Notes: generated by a model not told the origin, from the letters alone. Counted from the first letter of the stretch, positions 1 to 31,306 are shown. The stretch is DNA of 42,647 bases from an uncultured Chloroflexota bacterium (GCA_913030785.1 CAJWER010000001.1:1-42647), one strand, 5' to 3'. Numbers and translations: made by a program.

Positions 1-156
1 CCCTCTGAACACCCCTCTTACGGCGGATTGCCCTTCGACTTGCTCGGGGTGAACGGTGAATCGGGAACTCCGTTCGTGGTGAGCCTTTCGAACCGCGTCC
101 GGGATCACGCTCATCCTCACATACCCGGCGAGGGGCTGATGCCCTCTGCACACCCC
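1..156 (+). repeat. Composite copy of the mosaic intergenic repeat family: tail 'ccctctgaacacccc' (1-15), A module (31-96), B module (about 101-156)
   Basis: A module 'cccttcgacttgctcggggtgaacggtgaat...gttcgtggtgagcc' matches 9279-9340, 4099-4124, 5318-5340 and 25906-25932. The B module ending 'gccctctgcacacccc' matches 25861-25881, 11974-11994 and 31281-31306. Confidence 0.7.
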
Positions 157-200
157 ATTCTCGGCTTGGAGTTTTGTAGTGCGCTGCTAGAAGGGTATAG

Positions 201-1799
201 CTAGGGCGCGTCTGCTTCGTAGAGGTTGGGGGCATGCCTTGTCGTGAGGGACGGGTTGATGAATGTTGAGAATACCTTTGCGGAGCCCGAGTTGTGGTCT
301 ACGATGGCGTCGATCGCTTCCTGGATTCGGGTGGTGTGCAGGACCGGTACACGTTCTGGGAAGGTGCGGTGGATGTCCTTGAGGTACCAGTCGAATTGCA
401 GCAGCGGCGCGGCGATCACTGCGACATCGCGATTCGGGGATTTGACGTAGCGAACGTACCAGAGGGAGAAGAGGGTCTCCTCGGTCTGGCTGATAAGCAC
501 TGACCCGTCGGGCACTGCGTCAAGGATGCCCTCGGCGTGCTGCAGGGCCGTCCGATCGTCGCTCAGATCCTGGTCTGCGTAGTTGAGGGCAAGTGACACC
601 CCGGGCAGCAGCGCAAAGGCCAGCACTCCGAGGACCAGTAACGGTTGTGAGAGCAGTGACTTTTGCCATGCGGTCTGTGTTTTGAGCGCGTCGCCTTGCT
701 CTGTCAGGGCGCTGGCTATCTTGGCGAATCCGATTCCGACCCACACGGAGAAGAGTATGAAGACGGGGATCATCAGGACTTCGAAGTCGAAGGAGTTGTA
801 GGTCACCGAGTAGACGCTCAGGATGGCGATGCTGATCACAGAGGCGGCCCAGAGTGCTGGGAGGTACTTTCTCAGTGTCGGGATGGCCATCAGCCCGATG
901 AACAGGCCGAGAGGGTTGAACTGGGAGAAGACGAGGCGAGTCCAGTCTACGAGTCGTTCGAAGATGTTCCCCACCGTGACGCCGAACACGTACTCCTGGT
1001 AGGGGCGTGCCGAGAGGATCCAGATCGCACCTCGGAGTGTAGCGGCGTTGCCCCAGTTTATGGGCGGATGCTGGCCGGCGCGGAGGGGCAGGTAGGCGTA
1101 CACGGCGAGCCCCAGGAGCAGGGGGATGAAGAGCCAGAGCGACAGGGTTGCACGGGTCCCGAGGGACTTCCATATCCAGTAGATGAGGGGTACGGCGACG
1201 GCTAGCAGCGTGAGGTGGTTTCCGAGCCCCACTCCGAGGATCAGGCCGAACATGGCGAGTTTGGCATTCGGCGACGCGTACGAGGCGTCGCTGTCGTCGG
1301 TGCGGCGCAGCGTGAGCCACGTGGCTATGAGCAGGAGCAGCGACGCAAATAGCGCATTGAGGGCGTAGACCTCGGTGATGACGGCCTGTGACCAGAAGAG
1401 GGGCGAGGTGGCGAGGACGCTGCTGCCCAGGGCTGCGCCGGTGAGGGCGAGCCGTGGCGACGAGCCGGTGGCTGAGGTGATTCTCAGGATGGCCCAGAAG
1501 GTGGCGAAGACAGCGGCCGCGGCCAGGGTTGCCGAGAGCAGGTTGCCGCGGTAGGCGATGTCGCCGGCGGGCACGAGTTCTGTGAATCCCCGCAGGAGCA
1601 GTGTGTAGGTCGGATAGCCTGGCGGGTGCGGGATGCCCAGGGTGTGGGCTGCCGTCAGCAACTCGCCACCGTCGACGCCTTTGCGCTCCCAACCCCAGGT
1701 GAGGGTGGGGGCGAGGGTGGCGAGGTAGAGGGCGAAGGAGGCGAGCAGGATGGCGGTGGATACGAGCCTGGGCCATGGACTTGCTTGCACTGCATTCAT
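201..1799 (-). CDS. DUF2723 / TMEM260-like polytopic membrane glycosyltransferase (protein O-mannosyltransferase-like)
   Basis: 532-aa ORF with many hydrophobic segments. N-terminal 'GIPHPPGYPTYTLLL' motif is characteristic of DUF2723 proteins. The overlapping 430-aa Arg/Pro-rich ORF is an alternative-frame artefact. Confidence 0.7.
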   Translation of the reverse strand: MNAVQASPWPRLVSTAILLASFALYLATLAPTLTWGWERKGVDGGELLTAAHTLGIPHPPGYPTYTLLLRGFTELVPAGDIAYRGNLLSATLAAAAVFATFWAILRITSATGSSPRLALTGAALGSSVLATSPLFWSQAVITEVYALNALFASLLLLIATWLTLRRTDDSDASYASPNAKLAMFGLILGVGLGNHLTLLAVAVPLIYWIWKSLGTRATLSLWLFIPLLLGLAVYAYLPLRAGQHPPINWGNAATLRGAIWILSARPYQEYVFGVTVGNIFERLVDWTRLVFSQFNPLGLFIGLMAIPTLRKYLPALWAASVISIAILSVYSVTYNSFDFEVLMIPVFILFSVWVGIGFAKIASALTEQGDALKTQTAWQKSLLSQPLLVLGVLAFALLPGVSLALNYADQDLSDDRTALQHAEGILDAVPDGSVLISQTEETLFSLWYVRYVKSPNRDVAVIAAPLLQFDWYLKDIHRTFPERVPVLHTTRIQEAIDAIVDHNSGSAKVFSTFINPSLTTRHAPNLYEADAP

Positions 1800-1924
1800 T
1801 GTGTGGGGTCATATGGTACCGGAATCGGCGAGGCAGTTCACTTCCACTGGCTGAGCCTAGCGCTGGCCATGCCTGGGATGAGTAGGGCGCTCCGGTCGGG
1901 GGCTGAGTCTTTGCTGCGGCATTT

Positions 1925-2188
1925 TTACAGGTAGGCGATCACCGCGGCCTCGGTGGGCAGGTGGACTTTGGGGCCGAGTATCTGGGTTATGAATGCGAGG
2001 ATGTTGGGTTTAGGGTCTTCGCTTGCCTCGATGGTCTGCCAGCGGGTGGTGATGGCGTCTGTGTAGAGGTGTGCGCCGATGATGGCGCGCTGAAAAAAAA
2101 TCGATCCCCAGGTAGTAGATGTTGTCGCTGCGCAACTGAAGAAATCGGGTTCAAATGTTGGCCTCGTATTCTGTTCACGGGCCGACAT
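1925..2188 (-). CDS. Hypothetical protein, possibly a gene remnant
   Basis: 87-aa ORF with no recognisable motif. Contains a T8/A8 homopolymer (about 2093-2100) inside the frame and lies at the edge of a lower-GC patch. Confidence 0.2.
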   Translation of the reverse strand: MSAREQNTRPTFEPDFFSCAATTSTTWGSIFFQRAIIGAHLYTDAITTRWQTIEASEDPKPNILAFITQILGPKVHLPTEAAVIAYL

Positions 2189-2592
2189 GGCTACGATGGT
2201 CTGGGGGGATCAGAAACTGGTACGCGATGGACCGCCTCGCTATCCTCGTATTTGATGAAAGCGACCTGAAATCCATTGCCGCGGGAACCAACCTTGTCGG
2301 TATTCTCTATGATAAGTATTTCGATGTTAAGCAACTAGCATGACGCTAGCGCGTTAGAAGATGGGTGCATCATGTCATCTTTCTCATCATCTTTCGCACT
2401 TCTTCCGTCTTTCCGGCAATCAGGGCTACCATCGCTGACGTTTGAACCGTCAACGCCCACGTCGCCGTGGGAGGGCAGATGTGATTTCCATAGTGCTGGA
2501 ACACATTGGTGTTTGGTCGCCCGACTCTTTCATCCCTGATAGCAGACATTCCACAGGCCCTGCCATAGTGCCCGACGGGGAGAGGACCACGG

Positions 2593-2622
2593 TTGACAAG
2601 GCCGTGCTGCTGGGTGATTATA
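2593..2622 (+). promoter_or_regulatory. Sigma70-type promoter feeding the cobalamin riboswitch
   Basis: TTGACA at 2593-2598. -10-like 'gattat/attata' at 2616-2622 after a 17-18 nt spacer. Lies about 40 nt upstream of the riboswitch aptamer. Confidence 0.55.
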
Positions 2623-2659
2623 TGGCATGAGCGTCCGATGGGGCGTGTGTTGGAAAAAC

Positions 2660-2805
2660 TGAATAGGTGACGGGGGTGCCCGTCCAGGGAAAAATTCCTG
2701 GACGGGCCTAATAGAGGAAGCCGGTCTAAGTCCGGCACTGTCCCGCAGCGGTAGGTCCGGGTCCACTTTGGTGGGCGTGGGCGAGTCCGATCAACTGCCC
2801 CTGTC
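2660..2805 (+). promoter_or_regulatory. Cobalamin (B12) riboswitch aptamer
   Basis: 'ggtgcc' at 2675-2680. Conserved core 'aatagaggaagccggtctaagtccggcactgtcccgcagcggta' (2710-2752) closely matches the cobalamin-riboswitch core (AAUAGGGAAgCCGGUG..AAUCCGGcGCUGaCCCGCAaCGGUA). B12-box-like 'gagtccgatcaactgccc' at 2783-2800. Sits upstream of a BtuF-type transporter. Confidence 0.85.
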
Positions 2806-2856
2806 AATGTCGATGGCCTTCGAGGAAAGGTACGGGCATGGGTGGTTGTTGTTTAG

Positions 2857-2889
2857 CCCTGCATCCGTCTCGGAGCAGGGTATTTTTTG
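2857..2889 (+). terminator. Intrinsic terminator forming the riboswitch expression platform
   Basis: Stem 'ccctgc' (2857-2862) pairs with 'gcaggg' (2875-2880), followed by 'tatttttt' (2881-2888). Confidence 0.7.
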
Positions 2890-3061
2890 CCCTCTTCGGT
2901 TGTGGTACTCGCTGCCCTGGCAGGTAGCGATGTGTCTTCCTCGGTAGAAATTAGGGGAATGCGTGGCGAAGTGGATCCGGTATTGTGCATTTCCTTTCTT
3001 CGACGGCCTGCCACTGGGTCCGAGCGAGGATTTTCGGAAACCGAGGGAGGTGTTGTCAGTG

Positions 3062-4093
3062 ATGGGTCTTACGTCGTATAGAGCGAAATTGTTGTTTGTG
3101 CCGGTGCTGGCGGTCTTGGTGCTGCTTGCGATGGCTTGCGGGTCGGATGATGAGCCGCCGACTCGGGTGGCCAGCGATGTGGCTACAGATACCTCAACCG
3201 AGGCCGCTGCGGTGGCGACTTCGGCCCCGACCGAGGTCCCGACGAATCCTACTGCAATTGCTACTGCGACGCGGTTGCCTACAGCCACGCCGGTGCCGCT
3301 GTTCCCTGTTACCGTTACGGGCAGCAACGGTCGTGAGATCACCTTCGATGAGGCGCCCGAGAGGATCGTGGCGATCGATTCGGCGGTTGTGGAGACGCTG
3401 TTCGCGATCGGCGAGGGCTGGAGACTGGTGGGGACGCACGATTTTGTGTCGTATCCGCCCGAGGCGGCGGATATTGAAAGGGTGGGTGGCGCATTCAACC
3501 TCAATTTCGAGGCGACGGTGGGGCTGGACCCAGACCTGGTGTTTGTGTTTTCCGAGGGGCCGGCGGAGGAGCTGGAGCGGCTGGGCCTGCGGGTGCTGTA
3601 CCTGCAGAGTCTGAGCGACGATTTTCGCGGAGTGGCCGACAACGTCAGGATGTGGGGCCGAATCGTGGGGAATCCGGTGGCGGCGGGGGAGGTCGCGGCT
3701 GATTTTGAGGCGCGGGTCGCGGCCATCGAGAGGGCGATGGCGGGGCGAGACGAAGGGCCGAGGGTGTTCCAGGACGAGGGCGAGCTTTGGACACCGGGTC
3801 CGGATACGCTGATCGGCCAGGTGTTTACTGTGCTGAAGCTTCAGAATATTGCTCACGATGTGGTGGGGTATTCGCAGTTGAGCCCGGAGGTGATTGTGGA
3901 GCGGGCTCCGGAGATTGTGATCGCGTCGTATGGGGACTCGATCTCTGCCAATCCGGCTTTTGCGGAGCTGCCGGCGGTGAAGGATGGGCGCGTGTATGTG
4001 CCGGATAGTGACGCGCTGTCTATTACGGGTCCGCGGTATGTGGTGGGGCTGGAGAAGCTGGCGAAGTGGGTGTACCCGGACCTGTTTGACTAG
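3062..4093 (+). CDS. btuF: ABC transporter periplasmic substrate-binding lipoprotein, BtuF/FhuD class (cobalamin-type)
   Basis: ORF 2963-4093. Preferred start is ATG 3062, preceded by 'gagggagg', giving signal peptide 'MGLTSYRAKLLFVPVLAVLVLLAMAC' with a lipobox. 'ITFDEAPERIVAIDSAVVETLFAIGEG' is typical of PF01497-type binding proteins. Downstream of the B12 riboswitch. Confidence 0.85.
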   Translation: MGLTSYRAKLLFVPVLAVLVLLAMACGSDDEPPTRVASDVATDTSTEAAAVATSAPTEVPTNPTAIATATRLPTATPVPLFPVTVTGSNGREITFDEAPERIVAIDSAVVETLFAIGEGWRLVGTHDFVSYPPEAADIERVGGAFNLNFEATVGLDPDLVFVFSEGPAEELERLGLRVLYLQSLSDDFRGVADNVRMWGRIVGNPVAAGEVAADFEARVAAIERAMAGRDEGPRVFQDEGELWTPGPDTLIGQVFTVLKLQNIAHDVVGYSQLSPEVIVERAPEIVIASYGDSISANPAFAELPAVKDGRVYVPDSDALSITGPRYVVGLEKLAKWVYPDLFD

Positions 4094-4098
4094 GGCGG

Positions 4099-4124
4099 CC
4101 CTTCGACAGGATCAGGGTGAGCGG
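4099..4124 (+). repeat. Short A-module repeat copy between btuF and btuC
   Basis: 'cccttcgacaggatcagggtgagcgg' matches the A-module core seen at 31, 5318, 9279 and 25906. It creates the artefactual upstream start (4117) of the btuC ORF. Confidence 0.6.
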
Positions 4125-4185
4125 GGCTTGGGATGAGGGTGGGCTCACGTTTGGATTTGGGTTGCGAGAGGGGATTGGACTCCGG

Positions 4186-5256
4186 ATGAGGTCTTTGCAT
4201 AGGGAAAAAGCAGCAGTCGTCACGGGCCGCCGTGTGGGGGTGTTTCCCTGGCGGCGGCTTGGTGTCGGGCTGGTGGTGGTTGCTCTGGTGGGCGTGCTGG
4301 CGTCGGGGGTTGGCGCGGTGGCCATACCGCCGCTGACGGTAGTGAAGATAGGGTTGTCGAGGCTGCCGCTGGTAGAACTGGCTCAGACGTGGCCGGACAC
4401 GTGGGACACGATTGTGTGGCAGCTTCGGCTGCCCAGGGTGGCGCTGGCGGCGATTGTCGGCGGTTCCCTGGCTATGTCGGGGGCTACGTACCAGGGGCTG
4501 TTCCGGAATCCGCTGGCGGACCCTTATCTGATAGGCGTGGCGTCGGGGGCGGGCCTCGGTGCGACGATTGTGCTGGTGACGGAAGTGCCGGAGACGTTCG
4601 CGGGCGTCGGGGTGCTACCTGTGGCGGCGTTTGTGGGAGCTGTTGGGGCGGTGCTTCTGGCCTACGGGGTTGCGCGAGTATCCGGAGGGCTGCCGCTGAC
4701 GACTCTGATCCTGGCAGGGGTTGCTGTGGCGGCCCTTGCGGGTGCGGTGACGACGTTGTTGATGATTCGGAGCGACCCGGACCTGCGGCCGGTGCTGTCG
4801 TGGCTGCTGGGGGGCTTTGCGTCAGCTCAGTGGAAGCACTCGGCGGTGGTGCTGGCGTATTTGGGGCCGAGTGCGGTCGTGATGCTTTCTTATGGACGCG
4901 TGCTGAACGTGTTGCAGCTGGACGAGGCGCATTCGACGCAGCTCGGGGTCGACGTGGGCAGGGCTAAGCTGGTGCTGATTGGTGCTGCGTCGCTGGCGAC
5001 GGCGGCGGCTGTGGCGTTCAGCGGGCTGATCGGGTTCGTGGGGCTGATCGCTCCTCATGCCGTGCGGCTGGTGTGGGGGCCTGATCACCGGTCGCTGATC
5101 CCGATGGCGGCGATCGTGGGGGCTGGGTTCCTGATTGTGGCGGACCTGGTGGCGCGGACGGTGGTGAGTCCGTCGGAGTTGCCGGTGGGGATTGTGACTG
5201 CGTTCTGTGGCGCGCCTTTCTTTTTGTATCTGCTGAGACGGCGCCGGGGGGTCTAG
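4186..5256 (+). CDS. btuC: FecCD-family ABC permease (BtuC-like)
   Basis: ORF 4117-5256. Polytopic, with FecCD hallmarks ('RLPRVALAAIVGGSLAMSGATYQGLFRNPLADPYLIGVASGAG', C-terminal 'PVGIVTAFCGAPFFLYLL'). The start is uncertain: ATG 4186 is chosen because 4117 lies in a repeat. Confidence 0.85.
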   Translation: MRSLHREKAAVVTGRRVGVFPWRRLGVGLVVVALVGVLASGVGAVAIPPLTVVKIGLSRLPLVELAQTWPDTWDTIVWQLRLPRVALAAIVGGSLAMSGATYQGLFRNPLADPYLIGVASGAGLGATIVLVTEVPETFAGVGVLPVAAFVGAVGAVLLAYGVARVSGGLPLTTLILAGVAVAALAGAVTTLLMIRSDPDLRPVLSWLLGGFASAQWKHSAVVLAYLGPSAVVMLSYGRVLNVLQLDEAHSTQLGVDVGRAKLVLIGAASLATAAAVAFSGLIGFVGLIAPHAVRLVWGPDHRSLIPMAAIVGAGFLIVADLVARTVVSPSELPVGIVTAFCGAPFFLYLLRRRRGV

Positions 5257-5257
5257 T

Positions 5258-5368
5258 GTGCCCCTCCCCTCCAAAAAAAAGAAAACAATTATCCGAGGGG
5301 CACCCTCAAGCTCCCGGCCCTTCGGCGGGCTCAGGACAGGCGATGGGCTCTGTTCCTCTGCATACCCC
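5258..5368 (+). repeat. Composite repeat (A-rich P module + B-left hairpin + short A module + B-right) between btuC and btuD
   Basis: 'cccctcccctccaaaaaaaagaaaacaattat' + 'gaggggcaccctc' hairpin + 'cccttcggcgggctcaggacagg' + 'cctctgcatacccc'. Same module order as 25794-25932. Confidence 0.7.
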
Positions 5369-5511
5369 GTCCTCATAAGAGAAAAACATGATCTGCGAGA
5401 TACCGTTTGATGCTCCCAGCAAGGGGCTGTGCTTTTCTGCTCACGCCGTGTTATGGGTCTGCCAGAGCTGATGGTGCCGAGGGAGGATGAAATGCCGCGA
5501 AGATCGGTGGT

Positions 5512-6312
5512 GTGGGCTTGCTGAAAGTTGACAGAATAAGGTTTGGTTATGGCGCCGAGGCCGTGCTGGATGGGGTTGGGCTCGAGGTTGGGCGGGGTGA
5601 GCTGGTGGGGCTGGTGGGGCCTAATGGCTCGGGGAAGACGACGCTGCTGCGTGTGATTAGCGGTGTGCTGGCGGTGTCGGCCGGGCGTGTGAGTGTGGAT
5701 GGCCAGGATCTGGCAGGGCTCAGAGCGAGCTCTCGGGCGCGGCTTGTGTCGGTAGTGCCTCAGAATCCGCAGCTTCCAGAGGGATTTACGATCAGGGAGT
5801 TGGTGCTGATGGCGCGTAACTCTTATTTAAAGCTACTGGAGTGGGAGGGCCGTGGGGATGTGGAGGCGGCGACACGGGCGATGATGGAGACGTCGACGCT
5901 TGAGCTGGCTGATCGGGCGCTGGGTACGGTCTCCGGTGGGGAGCGTCAGCTGGCTGTGGTGGCGATGGCACTGGCTCAGGACGCGCCTGTGATGCTGCTG
6001 GATGAGCCCACGTCGAACCTGGATCTGGCCCACCAGACGGGCATCATGGATCTGGTGGTGCGACTGATGGAGGAGCGGGGGACGGCGGTGCTGGTGGCGA
6101 TGCACGATCTTACGCTGGCGGCGCAGTACTGCGACCGGCTCATCATGCTGTTTGAGGGGCGTGGGTTCGCCGTGGGGACGCCGTCGGAGGTGCTAACTGC
6201 GGCGAACATCGAGGCGGTGTACGGGGCTGAGGTGTACCTGGTGCCACACCCGTTGGGAGGGACGCCGGTGGTGCTTCCGGCGCGAGGTGCGAGGAGAGAG
6301 AATTACCGCTGA
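5512..6312 (+). CDS. btuD: ABC transporter ATP-binding protein (BtuD/FepC-like)
   Basis: Walker A 'GPNGSGKTT', signature 'VSGGERQ', Walker B 'VMLLDEPT', H-loop 'MHDL'. GTG start; an in-frame stop at 5488-5490 limits upstream extension. Confidence 0.9.
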   Translation: MGLLKVDRIRFGYGAEAVLDGVGLEVGRGELVGLVGPNGSGKTTLLRVISGVLAVSAGRVSVDGQDLAGLRASSRARLVSVVPQNPQLPEGFTIRELVLMARNSYLKLLEWEGRGDVEAATRAMMETSTLELADRALGTVSGGERQLAVVAMALAQDAPVMLLDEPTSNLDLAHQTGIMDLVVRLMEERGTAVLVAMHDLTLAAQYCDRLIMLFEGRGFAVGTPSEVLTAANIEAVYGAEVYLVPHPLGGTPVVLPARGARRENYR

Positions 6313-6371
6313 GACCGCAGAGAGGGGTCTTGTAGGGAGTTCGCAAGTTCGAGGATGCGTGATATGACGGC

Positions 6372-6488
6372 ATGGTGCAGGGTACGGGGTCGTCGGTGGG
6401 CAAGAGCCTGATAGCGACGGCGTTATGTAGGATGTTGCGGAAGGACGGTTATAAGGTTGCGCCGTTCAAGGCGCAGAACATGTCCCTT
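6372..6488 (+). pseudogene. cobQ: Remnant of cobyric acid synthase (CobQ/CbiP): N-terminal ~39 codons only
   Basis: '[39 protein letters not shown]' matches the conserved CobQ N-terminus (compare '[38 protein letters not shown]'). Similarity then stops. The ORF terminates at 6566, inside the 3' end of the convergent lactonase gene. Confidence 0.75.
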
Positions 6489-6562
6489 CTTTGCCTGGCA
6501 CATGTCGTCCACTGGTTGGGCATTCGCGCGATGCCCCTCCAGCCCGTTCCTCAGCCAGGCTG

Positions 6563-7636: not shown

Positions 7637-7699
7637 GGTGGTTCTCCGTTGTTCGTGTGTCGATACTTTAGACTAAATGGTGGCGCGTGTCTTTCTCTA

Positions 7700-7935
7700 T
7701 TTCCGCCCACCCGTCCTTTAGAGGAATCTGGGGGCGTTGCCCCCAGACCCCCACCAGAGGGGTGGAGCCCATCTGGACTCCCCATGTTGAGGGGCGCTAT
7801 GACCGGGGCTGGGATGGTTTTTTAGGTAGTGGAGTTCTCGTTTTACGCCTGTCCGCCCTAGATGGGAATCTGAGGCGTTGTCCCCAGGTCCTCACCAAAG
7901 GGGTGGGGTCCCTCTGGACTCCACTTGTTGGGGGT
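7700..7935 (+). repeat. Tandem duplication (period about 142 bp) of a C-type repeat unit
   Basis: 'gaatctgggggcgttgcccccagacccccaccagaggggtggagcccatctggactcccc' (7724-7784) versus 'gaatctgaggcgttgtccccaggtcctcaccaaaggggtggggtccctctggactccac' (7866-7924). The flanks also align. Confidence 0.75.
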
Positions 7936-7938
7936 GAT

Positions 7939-9153: not shown

Positions 9154-9278
9154 GGGGATACTGCGTGCGTTTTGTGCGGCCGGAGTTGTATGCGCGCCCG
9201 GGGGCTCCGCTAATTTGCGCAAGTCTCTCCCTCTCATAAAGAGGGATTAGCACAAGAGGTGTCCCACTGGCGAATTTG

Positions 9279-9340
9279 TCCTTCGACAAGCTCAGGACGA
9301 ACGGTGAATCTAAGGTTGAGTTCGTGGTGAACCCATCGAG
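9279..9340 (+). repeat. Long A-module repeat copy
   Basis: 'tccttcgacaagctcaggacgaacggtgaatctaaggttgagttcgtggtgaacc' is collinear with 31-96. Confidence 0.7.
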
Positions 9341-11906: not shown

Positions 11907-11945
11907 TCCCGACCGCCTCTTGTTCGAGGAGTGAAGGTCGTAGTT

Positions 11946-11994
11946 GTGGGGGCACCCTCACACACTGCTGAGGGCACGCCCCTCTGCAGTCCCC
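11946..11994 (+). repeat. B-type repeat copy between convergent rex and atpC
   Basis: 'gtgggggcaccctcacacactgctgagggcacgcccctctgcagtcccc': hairpin gtggggg/ccctcac plus the conserved 'gcccctctgca' tail. Confidence 0.7.
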
Positions 11995-12062
11995 TTGTTC
12001 AGTGGCACTGCCATAGGTGACGACGTGTGTCGCTACGCGGGTCACAATAGCGCCTGTGGCGT

Positions 12063-12485: not shown

Positions 12486-14823
<2,338 letters not shown>

Positions 14824-14849
14824 ATGGTCCTTTCGACCATCTCCTTGCC

Positions 14850-14937
14850 CCATTCCTATCCAGGAAGGGGTTCAAGAGAGGGTTATGGGGGTTCCCCCCC
14901 AGTCCTCTGCCAGAGGGTTCTACCTCTGGACTTTCTG
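14850..14937 (+). repeat. C-type repeat copy inside the atp operon (atpA|atpG spacer)
   Basis: 'tgggggttccccccc' hairpin plus 'ccagagggttctacctctggac' hairpin. Collinear with 7729-7784, 26883-26933 and 21510-21539. Confidence 0.65.
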
Positions 14938-16531: not shown

Positions 16532-16580
16532 CGCTGCCTCCCTAAGAGCAACTGCCCTGCCAAGACGGATTTAGGGCTGG

Positions 16581-16627
16581 GTCTGAGGGCCTTCCTCAGA
16601 CAACTGGCAAGGGGACTAGTCCCCTTG
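16581..16627. other. Two adjacent perfect palindromes in the atpH|atpA spacer
   Basis: 'gtctgagg gcctt cctcagac' (16581-16601, 8-bp stem) and the 20-bp perfect palindrome 'caaggggactagtccccttg' (16608-16627). Confidence 0.8.
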
Positions 16628-16637
16628 CTTATGTGGT

Positions 16638-18083: not shown

Positions 18084-18355
18084 TTACTCCTTAGACTCTT
18101 CTAATTTCGATTTGGGGCTGGGGCCCACCGATTCTATCACTTGCTCACAGATTCGCGGGAGACCTCTCCCGAAGCACAGGGTAATGGTAGGAGCGTGAGG
18201 GAAACCCTCTTGTTATCGGCAGACGGGCTGCGACCCTCTGCTCTCCCTTTACTCAGACCCTGCTATGGACCTATATGTAGTGTGTGACTCCCTATCGACA
18301 GTGCTCGGGACGCACCGAGTCTATTCCCCTTGCAATCCCCTTTGGCGGCAGGCCG

Positions 18356-21493: not shown

Positions 21494-21509
21494 GTGATCT
21501 CCTTCGGAA

Positions 21510-21539
21510 CCAGAGGGGTACGACCCCTCTGGACTCCCC
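21510..21539 (+). repeat. C-type repeat half-unit (perfect hairpin) in the pyrF leader
   Basis: 'ccagaggggtacgacccctctggactcccc': 9-bp perfect stem ccagagggg/cccctctgg, with the 'ctggactcccc' tail shared with 7771-7784. Confidence 0.7.
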
Positions 21540-21643
21540 ATCTGGGGGCGAGGTGGGACATTTGAAGTGTACGTGGAGATGGGGCGATGGGCAAGTTTGT
21601 GTGGCGGATGCGGCTGGTGCTAGCATCGGCCTTGAGGTGATTT

Positions 21644-23907: not shown

Positions 23908-23913
23908 GGATTT

Positions 23914-23942: not shown

Positions 23943-24000
23943 ACCCGGGCTTTCACCCTCATCTCAGTCCTCTCCCTCAGGAAGAGGAAGGGGACGGAGC

Positions 24001-25092: not shown

Positions 25093-25766
25093 CGCCTGTA
25101 CCGACCCTTTCGATCGGCCCTTGAGAGGAGCCAGTTGTGAACCAGCAGGGTCGCCAGTGCGAGGCCGATGGAGACCGCCACGAGCTTGAGGGCGGTGGCG
25201 TCGTCGCGAAGCTGGACGTTGGAGTAGATGGCCAGGGCGAGGGTCTGGGTGCGGCCTGGAATGTTGCCGGCAACGGTGATGGTCGCGCCGAACTCACTGA
25301 GGGCGCGGACGAAGCCTAGCAGGACGCCCGCCAGGATGCCGCGGTAGGCGAGGGGGATGGTCACCGTGAATATGGTGCGCCATGGGCCGGCGCCCAGGCT
25401 TCTGGCCGACATTTCAAGGCGCTCGTCGACCTCGGACATCGCTGTCATCATGGACCTTGCGATGAGCGGGAACGAAACCACGGCTGAGGCCAGGACAGCC
25501 GCGAACCATGTGAACACTATTTGCGTGCCGAACAGGCTCTCTGTGATTCTGCCGATGGGTCCGTCGCGGCCAAGGGCTAGCAACAGGAAGAAGCCTACGA
25601 CCACGGGTGGCACGGCCAGAGGCAGCGACACTAGGGCGTCGATGATCGTCGCGCCGCGCACTCGCTTTTTCGTGACGAGCCAGCTTACCGTTAGGGCAAG
25701 CGGCAGGTTGATCGCGGTGGCTACCGTTGCGATCTTGAGGGTTAGTGTTATCAAGGACAGGTCCAC
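25089..25766 (-). CDS. modB: Molybdate ABC transporter permease
   Basis: The 'SLGAGPWRTIFTVTIPLA' EAA-loop region and its size (~225 aa from GTG 25766) fit ModB. The ORF-track start 25844 lies within a repeat. Confidence 0.85.
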   Translation of the reverse strand: MDLSLITLTLKIATVATAINLPLALTVSWLVTKKRVRGATIIDALVSLPLAVPPVVVGFFLLLALGRDGPIGRITESLFGTQIVFTWFAAVLASAVVSFPLIARSMMTAMSEVDERLEMSARSLGAGPWRTIFTVTIPLAYRGILAGVLLGFVRALSEFGATITVAGNIPGRTQTLALAIYSNVQLRDDATALKLVAVSIGLALATLLVHNWLLSRADRKGRYRR

Positions 25767-25793
25767 GTTCGCCTCATGATTTGGGAGGGTGCG

Positions 25794-25932
25794 CTCCCTC
25801 CCCCCAAAAAGAAACAAATAGTTAGGTGTGAGGGACACCCTCACACGCCCGGCAGATGGGCGATGCCCCTCTGCACACCCCCTAGTGTCTCAGATTTGAA
25901 ACCAACCCTTCGGCAGGCTCAGGGTGAGCGGT
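25794..25932 (+). repeat. Composite repeat (P + B + A modules) inside the mod operon (modA|modB spacer)
   Basis: 'ccccccaaaaagaaacaaatagtt', hairpin 'gtgagggacaccctcac' (25828-25844, identical to 29891-29907), 'gatgcccctctgcacacccc', and 'cccttcggcaggctcagggtgagcgg' (25906-25932). Confidence 0.8.
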
Positions 25933-25962
25933 TGCGGTCTCTTCTACGAGTGTATGTAACGC

Positions 25963-26787
25963 TCACCGGGCGGGCTGGAAACCTAGGTCCAGGAATATCT
26001 TGCTTGCCGTTTGGTCTTGTAAGAACTCCAAGAATAGCCTGGCGTCGCTCTCGTTGGGGGCTTTATGGATCAGCGCTGCTGGATACACGATTGGCGAGTA
26101 GCTTTCGATGGGCACGATGTCCAGGACCTCGACTCTGTCCGATGCCCGGGCGTCGGTCTCGTATACGAGCGCGGCGTCCGAGTTACCGGACTCGACGTAG
26201 GCAAGGACTGCGCTGACGTTCGGGCCGAATACCAACATCTTTTCGATCGGTGTCCACAAGCCCAGCTCCTTCAGCGCCTCCCGTGCATAATCCCCTGCAG
26301 GGGCCAGGTCAGGGTCGGCGATGGCGACACTTGGGAAGTCCGAATCTGTCAGGTCCTGCAGCGTATTGGGCTGATAAGCGCCCTTTTGGACGACTACCAC
26401 GAGCTTGTTGGTGAGCAGGTCTACTGGCTCTGAACGGACGAGGTTTCTCTCAATAAGGAACTGCATGGGCAGTTCGCCAGCGGCGACGATAATATCTGCG
26501 GGCGCGCCACCTGCAACCTGCTGCGCTAGCGTCTGCGATCCGCCGAATGAGAAGGTCACCGTGGCGTTCGACACTGCCTCGAATTCCGCGCCTATCTCTT
26601 CCATGGCGACTGCCAGGCTGGCGGCGGCGAAGACGAGAATTTCCTTTGGTTCGGAGTACGAGGGCGAGCACGCGAGCAGGATGAGGGCGAGGCCAAGGGT
26701 GGTCGCCCACTTTATGGGCCATCCACCCGTGGCACTTGGCGTAGTGTGGGATTGAAGGGGGGTATGCATTTGTTCTCTGAGGGACAC
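25963..26787 (-). CDS. modA: Molybdate ABC transporter substrate-binding lipoprotein
   Basis: Signal/lipobox 'LGLALILLACS', 'ILVFAAASL', 'FSFGGSQTLAQQ' and 'APAGDYAREAL' are typical of ModA. The start is uncertain (GTG 26787 or ATG 26769). Confidence 0.85.
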   Translation of the reverse strand: MSLREQMHTPLQSHTTPSATGGWPIKWATTLGLALILLACSPSYSEPKEILVFAAASLAVAMEEIGAEFEAVSNATVTFSFGGSQTLAQQVAGGAPADIIVAAGELPMQFLIERNLVRSEPVDLLTNKLVVVVQKGAYQPNTLQDLTDSDFPSVAIADPDLAPAGDYAREALKELGLWTPIEKMLVFGPNVSAVLAYVESGNSDAALVYETDARASDRVEVLDIVPIESYSPIVYPAALIHKAPNESDARLFLEFLQDQTASKIFLDLGFQPAR

Positions 26788-26865
26788 CTGTAATATCCCG
26801 GCTTTTCGTCATCTCAGTAACTATCTCAACATAGAAGAGGCTGCTTCTACCCGCCCACCCACCTC

Positions 26866-26933
26866 GGGGGGACTTCCAATAAGGGGGACATCCCCCATGC
26901 CTTGCCAGAGGGGTTACCTCTCTGGAATCCCCG
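26866..26933 (+). repeat. C-type repeat copy in the modA leader
   Basis: 'gggggacatccccc' hairpin plus 'ccagaggggttacctctctggaatcccc'. Confidence 0.65.
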
Positions 26934-27008
26934 TCAAGCTAGAGACAGGCGTCGTACTATCGCGGGCGAAGTGCCCACCTCTTCCTAGTGCGCCTTGTCT
27001 GGCTGTAT

Positions 27009-27037
27009 ATTATGGGCTCCGCGTCGGGTAGTGGCAA
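27009..27037 (-). promoter_or_regulatory. Candidate sigma70-type promoter for modABC
   Basis: Minus strand: TTGCCA (27037-27032), 17 nt spacer, CATAAT (27014-27009). Implies a ~220-nt leader. Confidence 0.4.
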
Positions 27038-27066
27038 TTCTGTGTGATGCGGTGTGGCTGGTCGCG

Positions 27067-27095
27067 TTGACACGGTTGTGGGCCGTGAATAGAAT
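27067..27095 (+). promoter_or_regulatory. Sigma70-type promoter for the formaldehyde dehydrogenase gene
   Basis: TTGACA (27067-27072), exactly 17 nt spacer, TAGAAT (27090-27095). Confidence 0.6.
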
Positions 27096-27188
27096 GCCCT
27101 TGCCTGCCGTTGACGATTTTCGGGTTCTTTTTGGCGGTTGGCGATGACACTTGAACCCCGACCAGGCCCAATAGCAAGGAGGCCCCCG

Positions 27189-28340
27189 ATGAGAGCAGTC
27201 GTTTACAAGAAGCCGTTTGAAGTGGCGGTGGAGTCTGTTCCCGACCCGACGATTCAGCACCCCAACGATGCCATTGTGAAGATCACGTCGAGCTGCATTT
27301 GCGGGTCCGACCTGCACATGTACGAGGGGCGCACTGCCGCCACGCCTGGGATCGTTTTCGGTCACGAGAACATGGGCATCATTCAGGAGGTCGGCCCGGG
27401 GGTCAAGGACCGCAAGGTTGGCGATCGGGTCGTCATGCCATTTAACGTGGCATGCGGGTTCTGCAAAAACTGCCTGGGCGGCTTCACTGGGTTCTGCACG
27501 ACGGTGAACCCGGGGTTCGCCGGAGGCGCTTATGGTTATGTGTCGATGGGGCCCTGGGTGGGGGGCCAGGCAGAGTACCTGCAGGTGCCGTTCGCCGATT
27601 TCAATTGCCTGCCATTGCCTGCGGGCACCGAGCACGAGGCGGATTTCGCATTGCTGGCCGACATCTTTTGCACTGGCTACCACGGGGCGGAGCTGGCAGG
27701 CGTGAAGCCGGGTGAGAGCGTGGCGGTGTTTGGGGCCGGCCCGGTGGGCCTGATGGCCGCGTACAGCTGCTTGTTGAGGGGCGCGGCCGAGGTCTATGTT
27801 GTGGATCACGTTCAGGAGAGGCTTGATAAAGCCGAGTCCATCGGCGCGACGCCCATCAATTACGACGTTGCCGACCCCGTGGCTCAGATCAAGGAGCTGC
27901 GTGGTGGTGAGGGCACAGACAAGGGCATAGACGCGGTTGGTTACCAGGCCACAAAGGCGGGATCTTCGGCGTCGGGTGGCGAGCAGGACGAGGTTCCGAA
28001 CATCGTCCTGAACCAGCTCATCGACATGGTGAACCCCACGGGTGCGCTGGGTATCCCAGGCCTGTACGTCCCGTCGGATCCGGGTGGAGTGGACGCCGGA
28101 GCGAAGAAGGGTGCGCTCTCCCTCAACTTCGGGAAGCTGTTCGAGAAGGGCATTAGCCTGGGGACAGGACAGTGCAATGTGAAGCAGTACAACGCGCACT
28201 TGAGGGACCTGATTATCTCTGGCAAGGCGAAGCCGAGCTTCGTGGTGTCGAATGAGGTGTCGCTGGACGCCGCTCCAGACGCCTACAGCAAGTTCGACAA
28301 GCGGATCGAAGGCTACACCAAGGTCATCCTGCATCCCTAA
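27189..28340 (+). CDS. fdhA: Glutathione-independent formaldehyde dehydrogenase (Zn-dependent MDR family)
   Basis: 'ICGSDLHMYEGRT', 'PFNVACGFCKNCLGGFTGFCTTVNPGFAGGAYGYVSMGPWVGGQAEYLQVPFADFN' closely parallels Pseudomonas FdhA. ATG 27189 has AGGAGG 7 nt upstream. Confidence 0.85.
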   Translation: MRAVVYKKPFEVAVESVPDPTIQHPNDAIVKITSSCICGSDLHMYEGRTAATPGIVFGHENMGIIQEVGPGVKDRKVGDRVVMPFNVACGFCKNCLGGFTGFCTTVNPGFAGGAYGYVSMGPWVGGQAEYLQVPFADFNCLPLPAGTEHEADFALLADIFCTGYHGAELAGVKPGESVAVFGAGPVGLMAAYSCLLRGAAEVYVVDHVQERLDKAESIGATPINYDVADPVAQIKELRGGEGTDKGIDAVGYQATKAGSSASGGEQDEVPNIVLNQLIDMVNPTGALGIPGLYVPSDPGGVDAGAKKGALSLNFGKLFEKGISLGTGQCNVKQYNAHLRDLIISGKAKPSFVVSNEVSLDAAPDAYSKFDKRIEGYTKVILHP

Positions 28341-28343
28341 ATC

Positions 28344-28378
28344 TGTGGGGAGTGCAGTGGGGCACGCCCCTTTGCATC
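28344..28378 (+). repeat. Partial B-type repeat copy
   Basis: 'tgtggggagtgcagtggggcacgcccctttgcatc' resembles 11946-11994. Confidence 0.45.
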
Positions 28379-28401
28379 TTAAATCTTTCGGGGGTGCTGT
28401 C

Positions 28402-28635
28402 TTGTCCACAGACGGAGTAACGACAGTAATAAGCCTGATGGGCGCCATAGTAGGGTCCGAGGGCGGCACGCTGGAACTGGTCGACCTGTCTGGCGACAAG
28501 TTGACGGTCCGGTACAACGAGGGCACCAATGAGGAGTGTCCTGAGTGTGTACCGAGCCATGAGATGGTCCAGCAGATGCTCGCGGCGTCGTTGAAGGTGC
28601 ATGCGCCGGACGTCAGCGTGGTGGAACTGCTCTAG
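28402..28635 (+). CDS. NifU-like (C-terminal domain) small Fe-S-assembly-type protein
   Basis: 'GSEGGTLELVDLSGDKLTVRYNEG...CPECVPSHEMVQQMLAASLKVHAPDVSVV' follows the NifU C-terminal pattern (GG.lELV....l.V.......C..C). The start is uncertain (TTG 28402 or ATG 28438). Confidence 0.55.
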   Translation: MSTDGVTTVISLMGAIVGSEGGTLELVDLSGDKLTVRYNEGTNEECPECVPSHEMVQQMLAASLKVHAPDVSVVELL

Positions 28636-29825
28636 GGGCGATGTCCTAGCCAGGGGCGGTATACCTGGCCGCCGATTACGGTGCTGACGTGGTTGAGCTT
28701 GCGGGTCGCCTCGACCGCCGTTGGTTTCTGCCAGGTCATGCCGCCTATGTTCAGCGCCTGGGATAGGCGGTCGTTGAGGGTGAAGCGGCCTTCGTCCAGC
28801 GTGAGTATCGCCGCGTCCCCTATTGCCCCCACGGCGAGTGTGCCGTATCCGCCTTTCAGCCCCATGATTTTTGCCGCCGAGATCGTGCTGCGTTCGATTA
28901 CGTCGTCGAGGCTCATACCCAGGTGGATGAATTTGGATAGCGTGGTTACGAGGTCGTAGACCGGCCCCTCGACGTTGAAGATGTGCAGGTCGGTGCTGAT
29001 GCTGTCGGGTACGAACCCGGCGGCGAGGGCCCTTTCGGCGGTATCGAATGAGAAGCCGCCCATACCATGACCGACGTCGAACAGGACGCCGCGTTCGCGT
29101 GCCTCAAGGATGCCAGGCAGGACACCATCGAGGTTGGCGATGCGGTCCCCGATGCCGTGGAAGGCGTGGGTGACGACGTCGCCGGGCCTCATCATTGCGA
29201 CCAACTCTTCGATGGGTACGGGACATGCGCCGATGTGGGACATGACGAAGCCGTCGATGGCCTCGGCGGCCTCAATGGCACGCTTCAGGGACTCCACTGT
29301 GTTTTCGCCCGACTGTAGTTTGCCCAGCCGGACCTTGATGCCTGGTACGACGTCGCGGTTCTGCCTGGCTACCGTGATCGCCTTGTCCACCTCAGCCCAG
29401 CGCAGATCTTCCAGTTCGCCGACGTGGGATTCGGAGATCATGCCGGCGGAGGATATGTTGAGGAGCGCGAATGTGCGGGTGACCGCCTGGTCGATGACGT
29501 AGTGACGGAACCCTGGGAATGTGCGTGCGCCCGACGAGCCTGCGTCGAGGATGGTGGTGACGCCCTTGGCGACGTTGACGGGGTCGGGAAGGACGCCGTA
29601 GGCGGAGGAGCCCCAGAATGCGTGGACGTGGAGGTCGATGAGGCCTGGGGTGACGATTTGTCCCTTGGCGTCGATTGTCTCGAGGGCGCTATCGGAGGGG
29701 ATGTCTTGCTCGATAGCGGCTACTTTGCCGTCGGCGAACGCTATGTCGCGTAGGGCATGGAGCTTTTGTGAGGGGTCTACTAGTTTGCCGTTCTTGATTA
29801 GCAGGTCGTGTTTCGTCGTGGTCAA
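28632..29825 (-). CDS. Amidohydrolase / deacetylase-family metallohydrolase (dihydroorotase-like fold), paralog 1
   Basis: 397 aa. Metal-binding 'GLIDLHVHAF', 'DAGSSGA' and 'VTHAFHG' motifs. TTG start with AGGAGG 7 nt upstream. Paralog of 39374-40561. Confidence 0.8.
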   Translation of the reverse strand: MTTTKHDLLIKNGKLVDPSQKLHALRDIAFADGKVAAIEQDIPSDSALETIDAKGQIVTPGLIDLHVHAFWGSSAYGVLPDPVNVAKGVTTILDAGSSGARTFPGFRHYVIDQAVTRTFALLNISSAGMISESHVGELEDLRWAEVDKAITVARQNRDVVPGIKVRLGKLQSGENTVESLKRAIEAAEAIDGFVMSHIGACPVPIEELVAMMRPGDVVTHAFHGIGDRIANLDGVLPGILEARERGVLFDVGHGMGGFSFDTAERALAAGFVPDSISTDLHIFNVEGPVYDLVTTLSKFIHLGMSLDDVIERSTISAAKIMGLKGGYGTLAVGAIGDAAILTLDEGRFTLNDRLSQALNIGGMTWQKPTAVEATRKLNHVSTVIGGQVYRPWLGHRP

Positions 29826-29850
29826 AGGTTGGCCTCCTGGCTCGTTTTAT

Positions 29851-30013
29851 TTCCCCACCACCACCCCAAAGGAAGAAAAAATAATAGTCTGTGAGGGACA
29901 CCCTCACACTCCAGGCATAGGGGCTGTACTCCTCTGGACACCCTCGCAAGAGAAACGGGTGCTCTGTCCCCACGGGCACCCGGCAAAAGGGACTGGCCCT
30001 TCTGGGCTCCCCA
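29851..30013 (+). repeat. Composite repeat (P + B + C modules) between thrC-like and amidohydrolase genes
   Basis: 'ccccaaaggaagaaaaaataatag', hairpin 'gtgagggacaccctcac' (29891-29907), 'cctctggacaccc', then 'gggtgc...gcaccc...cccttctgggctcccc'. Confidence 0.8.
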
Positions 30014-30025
30014 TAGTAGAGACGC

Positions 30026-31192
30026 CTAGAGGAGGTCCAGGTATTTTAGGCCTGAGCCTGTGTTTAGCAATATGATCTTGTCGTTCTCTGATAGTGTGCC
30101 GTCTTGCAGGAGTTGGGCCGCTGCTGCTGCGGTGGCCGCTCCTTCCGGGCACATCAGGATGCCCTCGAGGGGCGGGACGCGGCTTGTCCATTCCATGATG
30201 GTCTGGTCGGAGAGGGCGATCGCGCCCCCTTTGCTCTCGCGAAGGACCTGCAAAATTAGGTAGTCGGCGATAGCCGCCGGGACCCGGAGCCCCGCCGCAA
30301 CGGTGTGGGCGTTTTTCCAGGGCTCGGCGAACTCGTCGCCACGTTGGAAGGCCCGGACGATGGGCGCGCATCCATCGGCTTGGACGGCGAACACCCTGGG
30401 CCTCTGAGATCCGATCCAGCCGAGGCGCTCCATCTCGTCAAAGGCCTTCCAGAAGCCCACGATGCCGGTGCCGCCGCCAGTTGGATAGATGATGACATCG
30501 GGCAGGGTCCAGTTCATCTGCTCGGCTAGCTCGTAGCCCATTGTTTTCTTGCCCTCGACGCGGTACGGTTCCTTGAGGGTCGAGACATCAAACAGGCCCT
30601 CCTTCTCCGCGGCCTCGTTGGAGAGCTTGCCAGCATCGGAAATTAGGCCGTCAACGAGAATCAGACGCGCTCCGTTGTACCTGACCTCTTTTTGATTGGC
30701 CTCGGGCGCGTCTTGGGGCATGAATACGCTCGCCTGCATGCCCGCGGAGGCGGCGTAGGAAGCCATAGCTCCGCCTGCATTGCCAGCCGAGGGCATCGTG
30801 AGCTTGGTGAGGCCCAGCTCCTTGGCTTTCGAGACGGCGGCGGATAGGCCACGGGCCTTGAACGACGCGGTCGGGTTGATCCCTTCGTCTTTGACGTATA
30901 GGTTGCTTGCGCCGATCTCTTTGCCCAGAGTTCGAGTCTTGAGGAGGGGCGTGAAACCCTCGCCGAGGCTCACGACGTTGGCGGGGTCGCGGATGGGCAT
31001 CATCTCAAAGTACCGCCACATGTTTGCGGGGCGGTTCTTCAGGGAGTCGCGGTCGAAGCCGGTTGCTGCGGCGTCCATGTCATATCTGGGATAAAGCACC
31101 TTGCCGCAGGACGGGCACGTGCGGTGCGGCTCGTCCGCGGAGAAGGTGTCCCCGCAATAGGTGCATTCAAGGTTTGTCAGGTAGCTATTCAT
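30026..31192 (-). CDS. thrC: Threonine synthase-like PLP enzyme with N-terminal zinc ribbon
   Basis: 388 aa. 'CTYCG...CPSCG' ribbon, PLP-lysine motif 'NPTASFKARG', 'PSAGNAG', 'GGGTG'. The family is clear, but the exact reaction (threonine synthase versus a paralogous activity) cannot be resolved from sequence alone. Confidence 0.7.
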   Translation of the reverse strand: MNSYLTNLECTYCGDTFSADEPHRTCPSCGKVLYPRYDMDAAATGFDRDSLKNRPANMWRYFEMMPIRDPANVVSLGEGFTPLLKTRTLGKEIGASNLYVKDEGINPTASFKARGLSAAVSKAKELGLTKLTMPSAGNAGGAMASYAASAGMQASVFMPQDAPEANQKEVRYNGARLILVDGLISDAGKLSNEAAEKEGLFDVSTLKEPYRVEGKKTMGYELAEQMNWTLPDVIIYPTGGGTGIVGFWKAFDEMERLGWIGSQRPRVFAVQADGCAPIVRAFQRGDEFAEPWKNAHTVAAGLRVPAAIADYLILQVLRESKGGAIALSDQTIMEWTSRVPPLEGILMCPEGAATAAAAAQLLQDGTLSENDKIILLNTGSGLKYLDLL

Positions 31193-31223
31193 GTTTCGTT
31201 CGATCGTCTCCTTGGTCCTCTTT

Positions 31224-31306
31224 CTGTCCAGGAAGAGGAAATAATGTAGTTGTGAAGGGTACCCTCACTCACCCAGCAAAGGGGCTCTGCCCCTCTGCAC
31301 TCCTCC
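31224..31306 (+). repeat. Composite repeat (P + B modules)
   Basis: 'ccaggaagaggaaataatgtag', hairpin 'gtgaagggtaccctcac' (31252-31268), 'ggggctctgcccctctgcactcctcc'. Confidence 0.7.

Follow-up and report, generated by a model that had tools for sequence, protein, structure and literature searches.

The window analysed here, a 42,647-nt stretch of DNA from an uncultured Chloroflexota bacterium (GCA_913030785.1 CAJWER010000001.1:1-42647), carries a family of hairpin-forming repeats in its intergenic spacers, all of them within 1-31.4 kb and none further along. We propose that these repeats are probably about 16 decayed copies of a Chloroflexota-wide miniature inverted-repeat transposable element (MITE), co-transcribed with the neighbouring genes and favoured in the sense orientation, and that a separate palindromic repeat, module A, is sometimes nested within them. 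A preliminary description of the same DNA had assigned the repeats to 13 loci, as a mosaic of modules P, A, B and C in a single orientation, and had likened them to REP (repetitive extragenic palindromic), BIME (bacterial interspersed mosaic element) or MITE-like elements mobilised in trans. The MITE comparison is supported: intact relatives of 138-143 bp with terminal inverted repeats (TIRs) and TA/TA flanks exist in other genomes, and the window copies align as their decayed derivatives. The elements apparently form an undescribed family of TA-targeting MITEs, an already known type of element; a literature search found no description of these Chloroflexota repeats, and no new class of mobile element is indicated.

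The tail motif CCTCTGSACWCC, with at most one mismatch, occurs 12 times in the window against 1.09 expected (0 of 100 shuffles reach 12), with 11 matches on the plus strand and one on the minus strand. Self-comparison of the listed loci by blastn gave direct (+/+) matches only, with E down to 5e-13, and repeat finding recovers the modules as families D1-D3, D6, D7 and D10, so that repeats are present at essentially all 13 loci. Four further copies (18174-18268, 16552-16628, 5382-5451 and 29953-30025) had been overlooked and were found with a hidden Markov model (HMM) built from five window copies; about 16 core copies occupy 13 of the 30 window spacers of at least 60 nt. A covariance model run with filters off places the core on the minus strand at 13 loci and on the plus strand at one (28346-28382). 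The uniform orientation first claimed thus holds for nearly all copies and fails for the one at 28344-28378, which HMM, motif and covariance model all read as inverted, and two supposed weak echoes at 23950-24000 and 41975-41995 matched neither the HMM nor the covariance model at E<=1. An identical 17-nt hairpin, GTGAGGGACACCCTCAC, does stand at both 25828 and 29891, and copies do lie within operons, at atpA|atpG, modA|modB, btuC|btuD and thrC-like|amidohydrolase.

The anatomy of the element became apparent from other genomes. Scanning species-representative genomes with the strand-neutral pattern AGGGGN{3,9}CCCTCTGSACWCC returned at least 120 matching tiles; among the matches listed, most tiles come from Chloroflexota metagenome-assembled genomes (MAGs), including Dehalococcoidia (from Lake Baikal deep water, groundwater and other collections), Chloroflexia and Ktedonobacteraceae, and more than 90 further copies were found in other genomes. 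Alignment of 44 long copies gave one single unit. Module P is its A/T-rich spacer together with a degenerate palindrome, H0 (CCCCCTTCCTGGCCAGGAAGGGGG), and modules B and C represent variant forms of the two other hairpins; the three are segments of one element of ~140 bp and not separate modules. The full element reads on the strand opposite to that of the preliminary description, which is the mRNA strand, and runs in the order TA, TIR RCAGGCTGCTGAAAAA, GGGRGU, H2', H1', A/U-rich spacer, H0, GAUGGUCGAAAGGG, right TIR, TA. Its 5' half is (c)TA-RCAGGCTGCTGAAAAA-c-GGGRGU, then H2' (GCAGAGGGGC gaa GCCCCUUUGC), c and H1' (GGGGGUCUGGGGG ugu CCCCCAGAU), and its 3' half, after H1', consists of ~12 A/U-rich nucleotides, H0, and AGGGGGAUGGUCGAAAGGG-UUUUUCAGCASCCUGY-TA(g). 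Many MAGs of Dehalococcoidia and other Chloroflexota contain copies with TIRs and TA flanks intact, and complete Dehalococcoidia chromosomes with such copies include OZ250142.1, OZ240219.1, OY282365.1, OZ242348.1 and OY764542.1. In the 15 intact copies, all from relatives, the length is 138-143 bp (longer with inserts) and the TIRs, RCAGGCTGCTGAAAAA and TTTTTCAGCAGCCTGY, are ~15 nt; about 11-12 of the 15 have TA on both flanks, frequently in a CTAG context, and one has matching TG/TG flanks, as target-site duplication predicts. Ends of this kind, TIRs with TA, point to a cut-and-paste, DDE-type element; the Correia elements of Neisseria likewise duplicate TA. Three subfamilies share the two-hairpin core and have distinct 3' halves, bearing H0 with GATGGTCGAAAGG, CCCCCAAGACTGGGGG or a GGGCGGGTGGGTGGGAA box. 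Outside the Chloroflexota, MAGs hold cores of the form GGGAGTCCAGAGGGGC...GCCCCTCTGG followed by a second hairpin (GGGGTGCAGGGGCAGAGCCCCTGC), at loci L022, L030, L045 and L039 (Clostridia), L031 (Spirochaetia) and L107, some of them in tandem, ~215 nt apart (L030).

Because the window copies align to the HMM of the full element and none has both TIRs, we read them as decayed, TIR-less relics of the Chloroflexota MITE family. The copies, with the strand on which the core reads, are as follows.

1-15, minus strand: partial core (H2' arm and GGGGTG) truncated by the window start; CCTCTGAACACC is the motif with one mismatch.
112-190, minus strand: core copy (covariance-model match 121-157), sense, downstream of a glycosyltransferase gene (stop at 201).
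171-190, minus strand: left-TIR remnant CTAGCAGCGCACTACAAAAC belonging to the copy at 112-190.
5259-5373, minus strand: core copy between the FecCD (+) and ABC ATPase (+) genes (btuC|btuD), antisense to both.
About 5316-5338: module-A half (~20 nt, with a GCC repeat) that interrupts the copy at 5259-5373.
5382-5451, minus strand: second, degenerate copy in the FecCD|ABC ATPase spacer, antisense; nhmmer E=9e-5 and 3e-3.
7702-7795, minus strand: core copy of the GGGCGGGTGGG-box subfamily; covariance-model match 7724-7784, 58.1 bits.
7854-7930, minus strand: core copy starting 14 nt past the stop of a Methyltransf_28 gene (7939); direct repeat of 7702-7795.
11940-12003, minus strand: core copy, sense, downstream of atpC, with a partial left TIR (CTGAACAA).
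14829-14937, minus strand: copy between atpA and atpG, sense; core, H0 and GAGATGGTCGAAAGG are preserved, and 5 nt separate its end from the atpG ATG.
16552-16628, minus strand: copy between atpH and atpA, sense, 10 nt past the atpH stop.
18174-18268, minus strand: copy between atpB and atpE, sense, with left-TIR remnant ATAGCAGGGTCTGAGTAAA; nhmmer model positions 5-79.
21506-21541, minus strand: H2'-only copy in the divergent region between pyrF and sfsA (repeat finding, covariance model).
25793-25887, minus strand: copy between modA and modB, sense; top covariance-model score, 67.5 bits.
26868-26933, minus strand: member of the GGTGGGTGGGCGGG-box subfamily, located upstream of modA and divergent from adh.
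28346-28382, plus strand: sole inverted copy, 6 nt past the stop of the plus-strand adh and sense to it.
29870-29947, minus strand: copy between the thrC-like and amidohydrolase genes, sense (repeat finding, blastn, HMM, covariance model).
29953-30025, minus strand: second copy in the thrC-like|amidohydrolase spacer; the thrC-like TAG stop lies 13 nt before its GGGGAG.
31197-31312, minus strand: copy between a gene of unknown function (458 aa) and the thrC-like gene, sense.

The last of these is the most complete, with core, A/U spacer, H0 and the GACGATCGAACG segment, and aligns (31303-31197) over positions 28-134 of the full-element HMM (nhmmer, E=3e-18); the atpA|atpG copy (14932-14829) aligns over positions 30-135 (E=1e-11). 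Across the window copies the full-element HMM covers core, spacer, H0 and GATGGTCGAAAGG. Left-TIR remnants persist in two or three copies (18268-18250, 12003-11996 and 190-171), and the TIRs RCAGGCTGCTGAAAAA and TTTTTCAGCAGCCTGY have 0 matches in the window with up to three mismatches. The H2' hairpin of the atpH|atpA copy is a perfect 22-nt palindrome, GCAAGGGGACTAGTCCCCTTGC, at 16607-16628, 10 nt after the atpH stop. The repeat sites are unchanged, with no indels, in four contigs that are 99.5-99.9% identical to the window (L001-L004). The GGAGATGGTCGAAAGG segment of the atpA|atpG copy lies directly upstream of the atpG ATG (14823) and may supply the atpG ribosome-binding site; AtpG is probably 286 aa, from the start at 14823 that is called on metagenome contigs, and an alternative open reading frame (ORF) of 296 aa from 14853 starts inside the repeat.

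The orientation of the element follows gene transcription and not the replication strand. Genes in the fetched tiles were called with a codon log-odds caller trained on Pfam-verified window genes, and Pfam placed domains on the called strand in 9 of 10 flanks of antisense cases and in 8 of 10 upstream genes of sense cases. Counting non-window copies between co-directional genes, with sense meaning GGGRGU-H2'-H1' on the coding strand, we found 58 sense and 12 antisense copies at E<=1e-3, 49 and 9 at E<=1e-5, and 44 and 4 at E<=1e-7 (binomial p ~1e-8 for the sense bias); intact-TIR copies in this setting were sense in all 11 instances, with 0 antisense. Within the window, all copies read in the same direction as the gene immediately before them, the plus-strand copy behind adh included, except for the two in btuC|btuD. 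The near-uniform plus-strand look of the window copies arises because most local genes, ~26 of 37, are on the minus strand.

The preliminary description had favoured a different origin, in which REP/BIME-like elements are moved by a single-strand HUH transposase, either a REP-associated tyrosine transposase (RAYT) or an IS200/IS605 TnpA, and take their orientation from replication. The window taken by itself lends this some colour, in that 15 of the 16 copies lie on one strand, the GC skew of the plus strand is strongly positive and the elements are rich in hairpins. However, in other genomes orientation has no association with the sign of the tile-wide GC skew, to which elements of the IS200/IS605 type would be tied (44:50 and 61:65, from 94-126 copies; 19:26 where |skew|>0.04), and it is mixed among copies within one 8-kb tile (21 the same, 11 different); the copy behind a plus-strand gene in a convergent spacer is flipped. 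Furthermore, intact copies end in TIRs with TA duplications, features absent from HUH elements, the 81-copy alignment is devoid of the GTAG or CGTC tag of the family definitions (PMC3733652), and adjacent copies are direct rather than inverted. Pfam scans of the window ORFs turned up no RAYT gene, nor was any RAYT or IS200/IS605 signature detected. The statement that the window holds no transposase needs qualifying, for it contains a phage-type integrase gene at 38263-39054; no DDE transposase domain was found among the ORFs submitted to Pfam. An HUH-driven origin is thus largely refuted, and we regard it as very improbable.

About a quarter of the copies directly adjoin the stop codon of the preceding gene. 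The core starts 13-19 nt past the stop codon in 15 of the 63 copies with an upstream gene on the same strand, other distances being broadly spread, and at 13-19 nt the upstream stop abuts the left TIR; in the window, the stops of adh, atpH, the thrC-like gene and the methyltransferase gene are 6-14 nt from the core. The proteins encoded upstream of copies are mutually unrelated, and a search beside copies for a conserved neighbour gene, such as a transposase or RAYT, found neighbouring proteins that are unrelated to each other. We infer that insertion of an element starting with G or A into a TA (often CTAG) target regenerates TAG or TAA; since the two ends are symmetrical, stop regeneration alone cannot set the orientation.

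A location just past stop codons and a sense orientation would also suit ordinary intrinsic terminators or attenuators that share sequence by chance, and a few copies have a T-rich stretch after H1' (5309, 25840 and 29908, on the minus strand). The copies had indeed been called terminator-like on the minus strand, a claim that is weak: only three copies match the pattern, and loosely, and terminator-like sites are not above shuffles (13 vs 15.7; 19 vs 14.0). The U-tract is interrupted and displaced, and intact copies bear transposon ends. Three copies stand inside the atp operon, before essential subunit genes, and one between modA and modB, where efficient termination would be lethal or polar and is therefore implausible. 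We accordingly attach hardly any credence to this explanation.

The hairpins themselves are maintained. Covariation was scored on 81 distinct cores with a hand-specified structure, the RNAalifold/MAFFT consensus being meaningless because of misaligned loops. Paired cells make up 89.5% in these cores, compared with 82.0% in shuffles and at most 66% with slid partners; double changes occur in 9 of 18 pairs, such as a swap of G-C for C-G at the H2' base and a replacement of G-C by A-U inside H1', and the covariation score is 0.214 against 0.111 for shuffled alignments (0 of 500). GGGRGU and CAGAGGGG are nearly invariant across the 81 copies, which come from many genomes, and this suggests sequence-specific recognition rather than folding alone. 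At pair 12-32, G.U is found in 45 copies, G-C in 33 and A.C in none, which favours the mRNA-sense strand as the one that folds. A canonical copy is predicted to fold into a TIR-closed multi-branch structure of -78.9 kcal/mol in the sense orientation (z = -3.7), and of -67.2 in the antisense.

These observations bear on whether the GGGRGU-H2'-H1' core is a functional RNA, with a protein-binding, processing or stabilising role in 3' UTRs and intercistronic spacers, for which MITEs are merely the vehicle, so that host selection rather than transposition would explain both the phylum-wide conservation and the sense orientation. In support of this, GGGRGU and CAGAGGGG stay near-invariant while H1' co-varies, the core is common to three subfamilies whose 3' halves differ, MAGs of Clostridia and Spirochaetia contain cores like it, and the sense bias reaches 44:4. 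In addition, although no Rfam family matched at the gathering threshold in the window or in 18 loci, RF02937 (Clostridiales-2 RNA), searched with permissive thresholds, matches nine canonical copies with 19-25 bits and two window copies with 15.6-16.8 bits, over the whole model and always in sense. However, every one of these scores is far under the gathering score of 58.6, so that by Rfam's criterion the copies fall outside the family; the positions of copies are not conserved between relatives; and window copies decay freely, with ~10-15% of copies antisense. We consider a functional core of this kind possible but rather unlikely.

We therefore return to the MITE interpretation, in which events would run as follows. 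A non-autonomous element would be moved in trans by a TA-targeting transposase, presumably of the IS630/Tc1-mariner type. Its copies would land in intergenic DNA, often exactly at a stop codon, and would then be co-transcribed with the neighbouring genes. The orientation that gives a GGGRGU-H2'-H1' transcript is strongly favoured, probably either because the other one is harmful or because the sense hairpins are useful, possibly in protecting the 3' end of the upstream mRNA or as a processing site. The nearest relatives to hand (AtpA 67-75% identical) lack the copies in the atp spacers, which would make these lineage-specific insertions and not an ancient regulatory feature. In this account, anatomy, distribution, orientation statistics and covariation are observed, and the transposase family, the co-transcription and the cause of the bias are inferred.

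Several points weigh against this interpretation. Both TIRs are kept in none of the window copies, and the two copies in btuC|btuD have been kept although they are antisense. No autonomous element, and no transposase with matching ends, was found in ~1.7 Mb of fetched loci, in which TIR pairs 0.7-2.6 kb apart amounted to noise only, at 4 mismatches; as no transposase was found, the IS630-type assignment draws on the TA flanks and the form of the TIRs alone. Among orthologous sites, no filled/empty pair was observed. Conservation of the core extends across classes, with similar cores in Clostridia and Spirochaetia MAGs, which exceeds what a purely selfish interior would need. Lastly, outside pair 12-32, G.U (25) does not exceed A.C (39), so the strand evidence from folding is thin; with only one informative base pair, the argument about the folding strand leans mainly on the gene-orientation data.

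One further version of events, which we think improbable though worth stating, is that the core has been domesticated as a sequence-specifically recognised RNA module for a conserved host factor, spread by MITEs and including the Clostridiales-2 form. If so, the core would set the stability or stoichiometry of operon segments, and an orphan Rfam motif would belong to a mobile regulatory cassette shared across phyla, with insertion at stop codons, a transcription-dependent orientation and related forms in Clostridia and Spirochaetia.

As MITE relics, the repeats matter for annotation: within the first 31 kb they make up ~40% of the larger spacers, they give rise to long spurious ORFs and they are liable to be misread as terminators or small RNAs (sRNAs). 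Models m1 and R1 permit their masking in SAR202-like and other Chloroflexota MAGs. Moreover, with a sense bias of 5-10:1 that is already present in intact copies, the family illustrates with unusual clarity how transcription shapes the set of surviving MITE insertions; its frequent insertions right at stop codons, some of them within the atp and mod operons, illustrate the same. It is also the likely source of the orphan Clostridiales-2 motif.

Module A (CCCTTCGACaaGCTCAGGacGAACGG on the plus strand) had been listed beside P, B and C, but it is a different element from the one that these make up: it is a separate, unrelated, REP-sized palindromic repeat that is sometimes nested in the MITE, and this nesting is the source of the mosaic impression. 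In the window it takes the following forms.

28-91: full inverted pair (long hairpin), D7 repeat, 73% identical to 9276-9339.
9276-9339: full inverted pair (repeat finding, blastn).
4099-4124: half-element between the btuF-like and FecCD genes, D6 repeat, 92% identical to 25906-25931.
25906-25931: half-element beside the modA|modB copy (repeat finding, blastn).

In the btuC|btuD copy, a 20-nt module-A half lies between H2' and H1' of the MITE core with GCC/GCC flanks. Inserts at the identical site and in the identical orientation are found in L011 (2835-2999) and L085 (6409-6614), the latter with three inserts in one element; in the mRNA sense the inserted half reads TGYCCTGAGCnnGCCGAAGG, after GCC and before GCC or GAC, in three genomes. 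The recurrent site indicates either a tiny element that strongly prefers this target or a MITE lineage that has long carried the insert. Relative to gene direction, module A has no orientation bias (6:5). It appears to be a very widespread small repeat: in a relative (L125) it lies in atp spacers, in the orientation opposite to that in the window, and beyond the Chloroflexota it occurs (CCTGAGCTTGCCGAAGG) in an Acidobacteriaceae MAG (L053, 3285-3301). A literature search found no description of module A or of its peptide motifs.

Gene identities in the window (G+C 60%) were assigned with Pfam and Rfam. The minus strand holds a complete atpBEFHAGDC operon, and the plus strand a cobalamin riboswitch (2657-2816, Rfam 52.5 bits) upstream of btuF-like, FecCD and ABC ATPase genes, the spacers of which contain the only antisense MITE copies of the window together with a module-A half. 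Further genes are those for a lactonase, a methyltransferase, citrate synthase, rex, pyrF, sfsA, modABC, an alcohol dehydrogenase, two amidohydrolases, a thrC-like pyridoxal phosphate (PLP) enzyme and tRNA-Gln, followed by the phage-type integrase. Contigs from TARA and other marine metagenomes have an identical AtpD and 99.5-99.9% DNA identity to the window, which indicates an uncultured marine bacterium as the source; the distribution of the repeat family would likewise suggest Chloroflexota. The GC skew of the plus strand is strongly positive (0.06-0.28) over 1-38 kb despite the mostly minus-strand genes, including the atp operon; past tRNA-Gln (38093-38166) and the integrase gene (38263-39054), the skew is negative and G+C falls to 0.55-0.58, and the region after ~38000 looks like an integrated island. 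The two amidohydrolase genes (28632-29825 and 39374-40561, both on the minus strand) are paralogous, with 68% DNA identity over 514 nt, and the second is within the putative island.

Among known systems, REP families are intergenic hairpin repeats that lie mostly between co-directional or convergent genes and are probably transcribed (PMC3733652). The resemblance of REP/BIME and REPIN-RAYT systems to the MITE ends with intergenic hairpins, since the MITE is a 140-bp unit with TIR and TA ends and not a 20-40-nt palindrome tagged with GTAG/CGTC; it has GGGRGT beside its core, and neighbouring core copies (7724/7866, 29887/29953 and 5292/5382) form direct repeats, with no inverted doublets. It is module A alone that is REP-like, in its size and its inverted pairs (28-91 and 9276-9339). 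BOX elements of S. pneumoniae form a modular mosaic, are co-transcribed with operons and create spurious ORFs (PMC3049150), whereas here the segments belong to one element with nested insertions and not to a variable boxA-boxB(n)-boxC array. BOX primers (CAGGCTGCTCAAAACACG and GCAGGTTGCTCAAAACACTG; PMC3049150) resemble the TIR RCAGGCTGCTGAAAAAC of L018, L043 and L058, an unverified lead that may reflect coincidence or related transposon ends.

RF02937, the closest catalogued entity, if at sub-threshold scores only, has a consensus, AAAA..GGGgGUGcaGgGGg-loop-cCCcCugCCG...GUCGAAGGGAA, that parallels the A-run, GGGRGU, H2' hairpin and GUCGAAAGGG segment of the element; the middle of the element (H1', spacer and H0) is counted as an insertion, and Rfam lists the family as an sRNA gene and not as a transposon. 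RUP of S. pneumoniae and other IS630/Tc1-mariner-derived MITEs are intergenic, non-coding and ~100-150 bp long, fold extensively, have TIRs and a TA duplication, and are believed to be moved in trans (PMC2229807). The Chloroflexota element is like RUP in its size, lack of coding capacity, TIRs with TA duplication, intergenic location and folding; it differs in its host phylum, in having no cognate insertion sequence found, in its three GC-rich interior hairpins with a core conserved across classes, and in its strong sense bias and many copies abutting stop codons. The Correia elements of Neisseria and ERIC/IRU of enterobacteria are MITEs that are co-transcribed with flanking genes, with hairpins that affect the fate of the mRNA, and the effects of ERIC are orientation-dependent (PMC2229807, PMC3049150). 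Our element would share with them its hairpins and its putative co-transcription; there is no sequence relationship, no evidence of RNase III/E or IHF was seen here, and in this family a population-level orientation skew of 5-10:1 goes beyond an orientation-dependent effect. Altogether, the closest mechanistic analogues would be the TA-duplicating MITEs (RUP/IS630-Spn1 and Correia) and the co-transcribed, orientation-sensitive repeats (ERIC and BOX).

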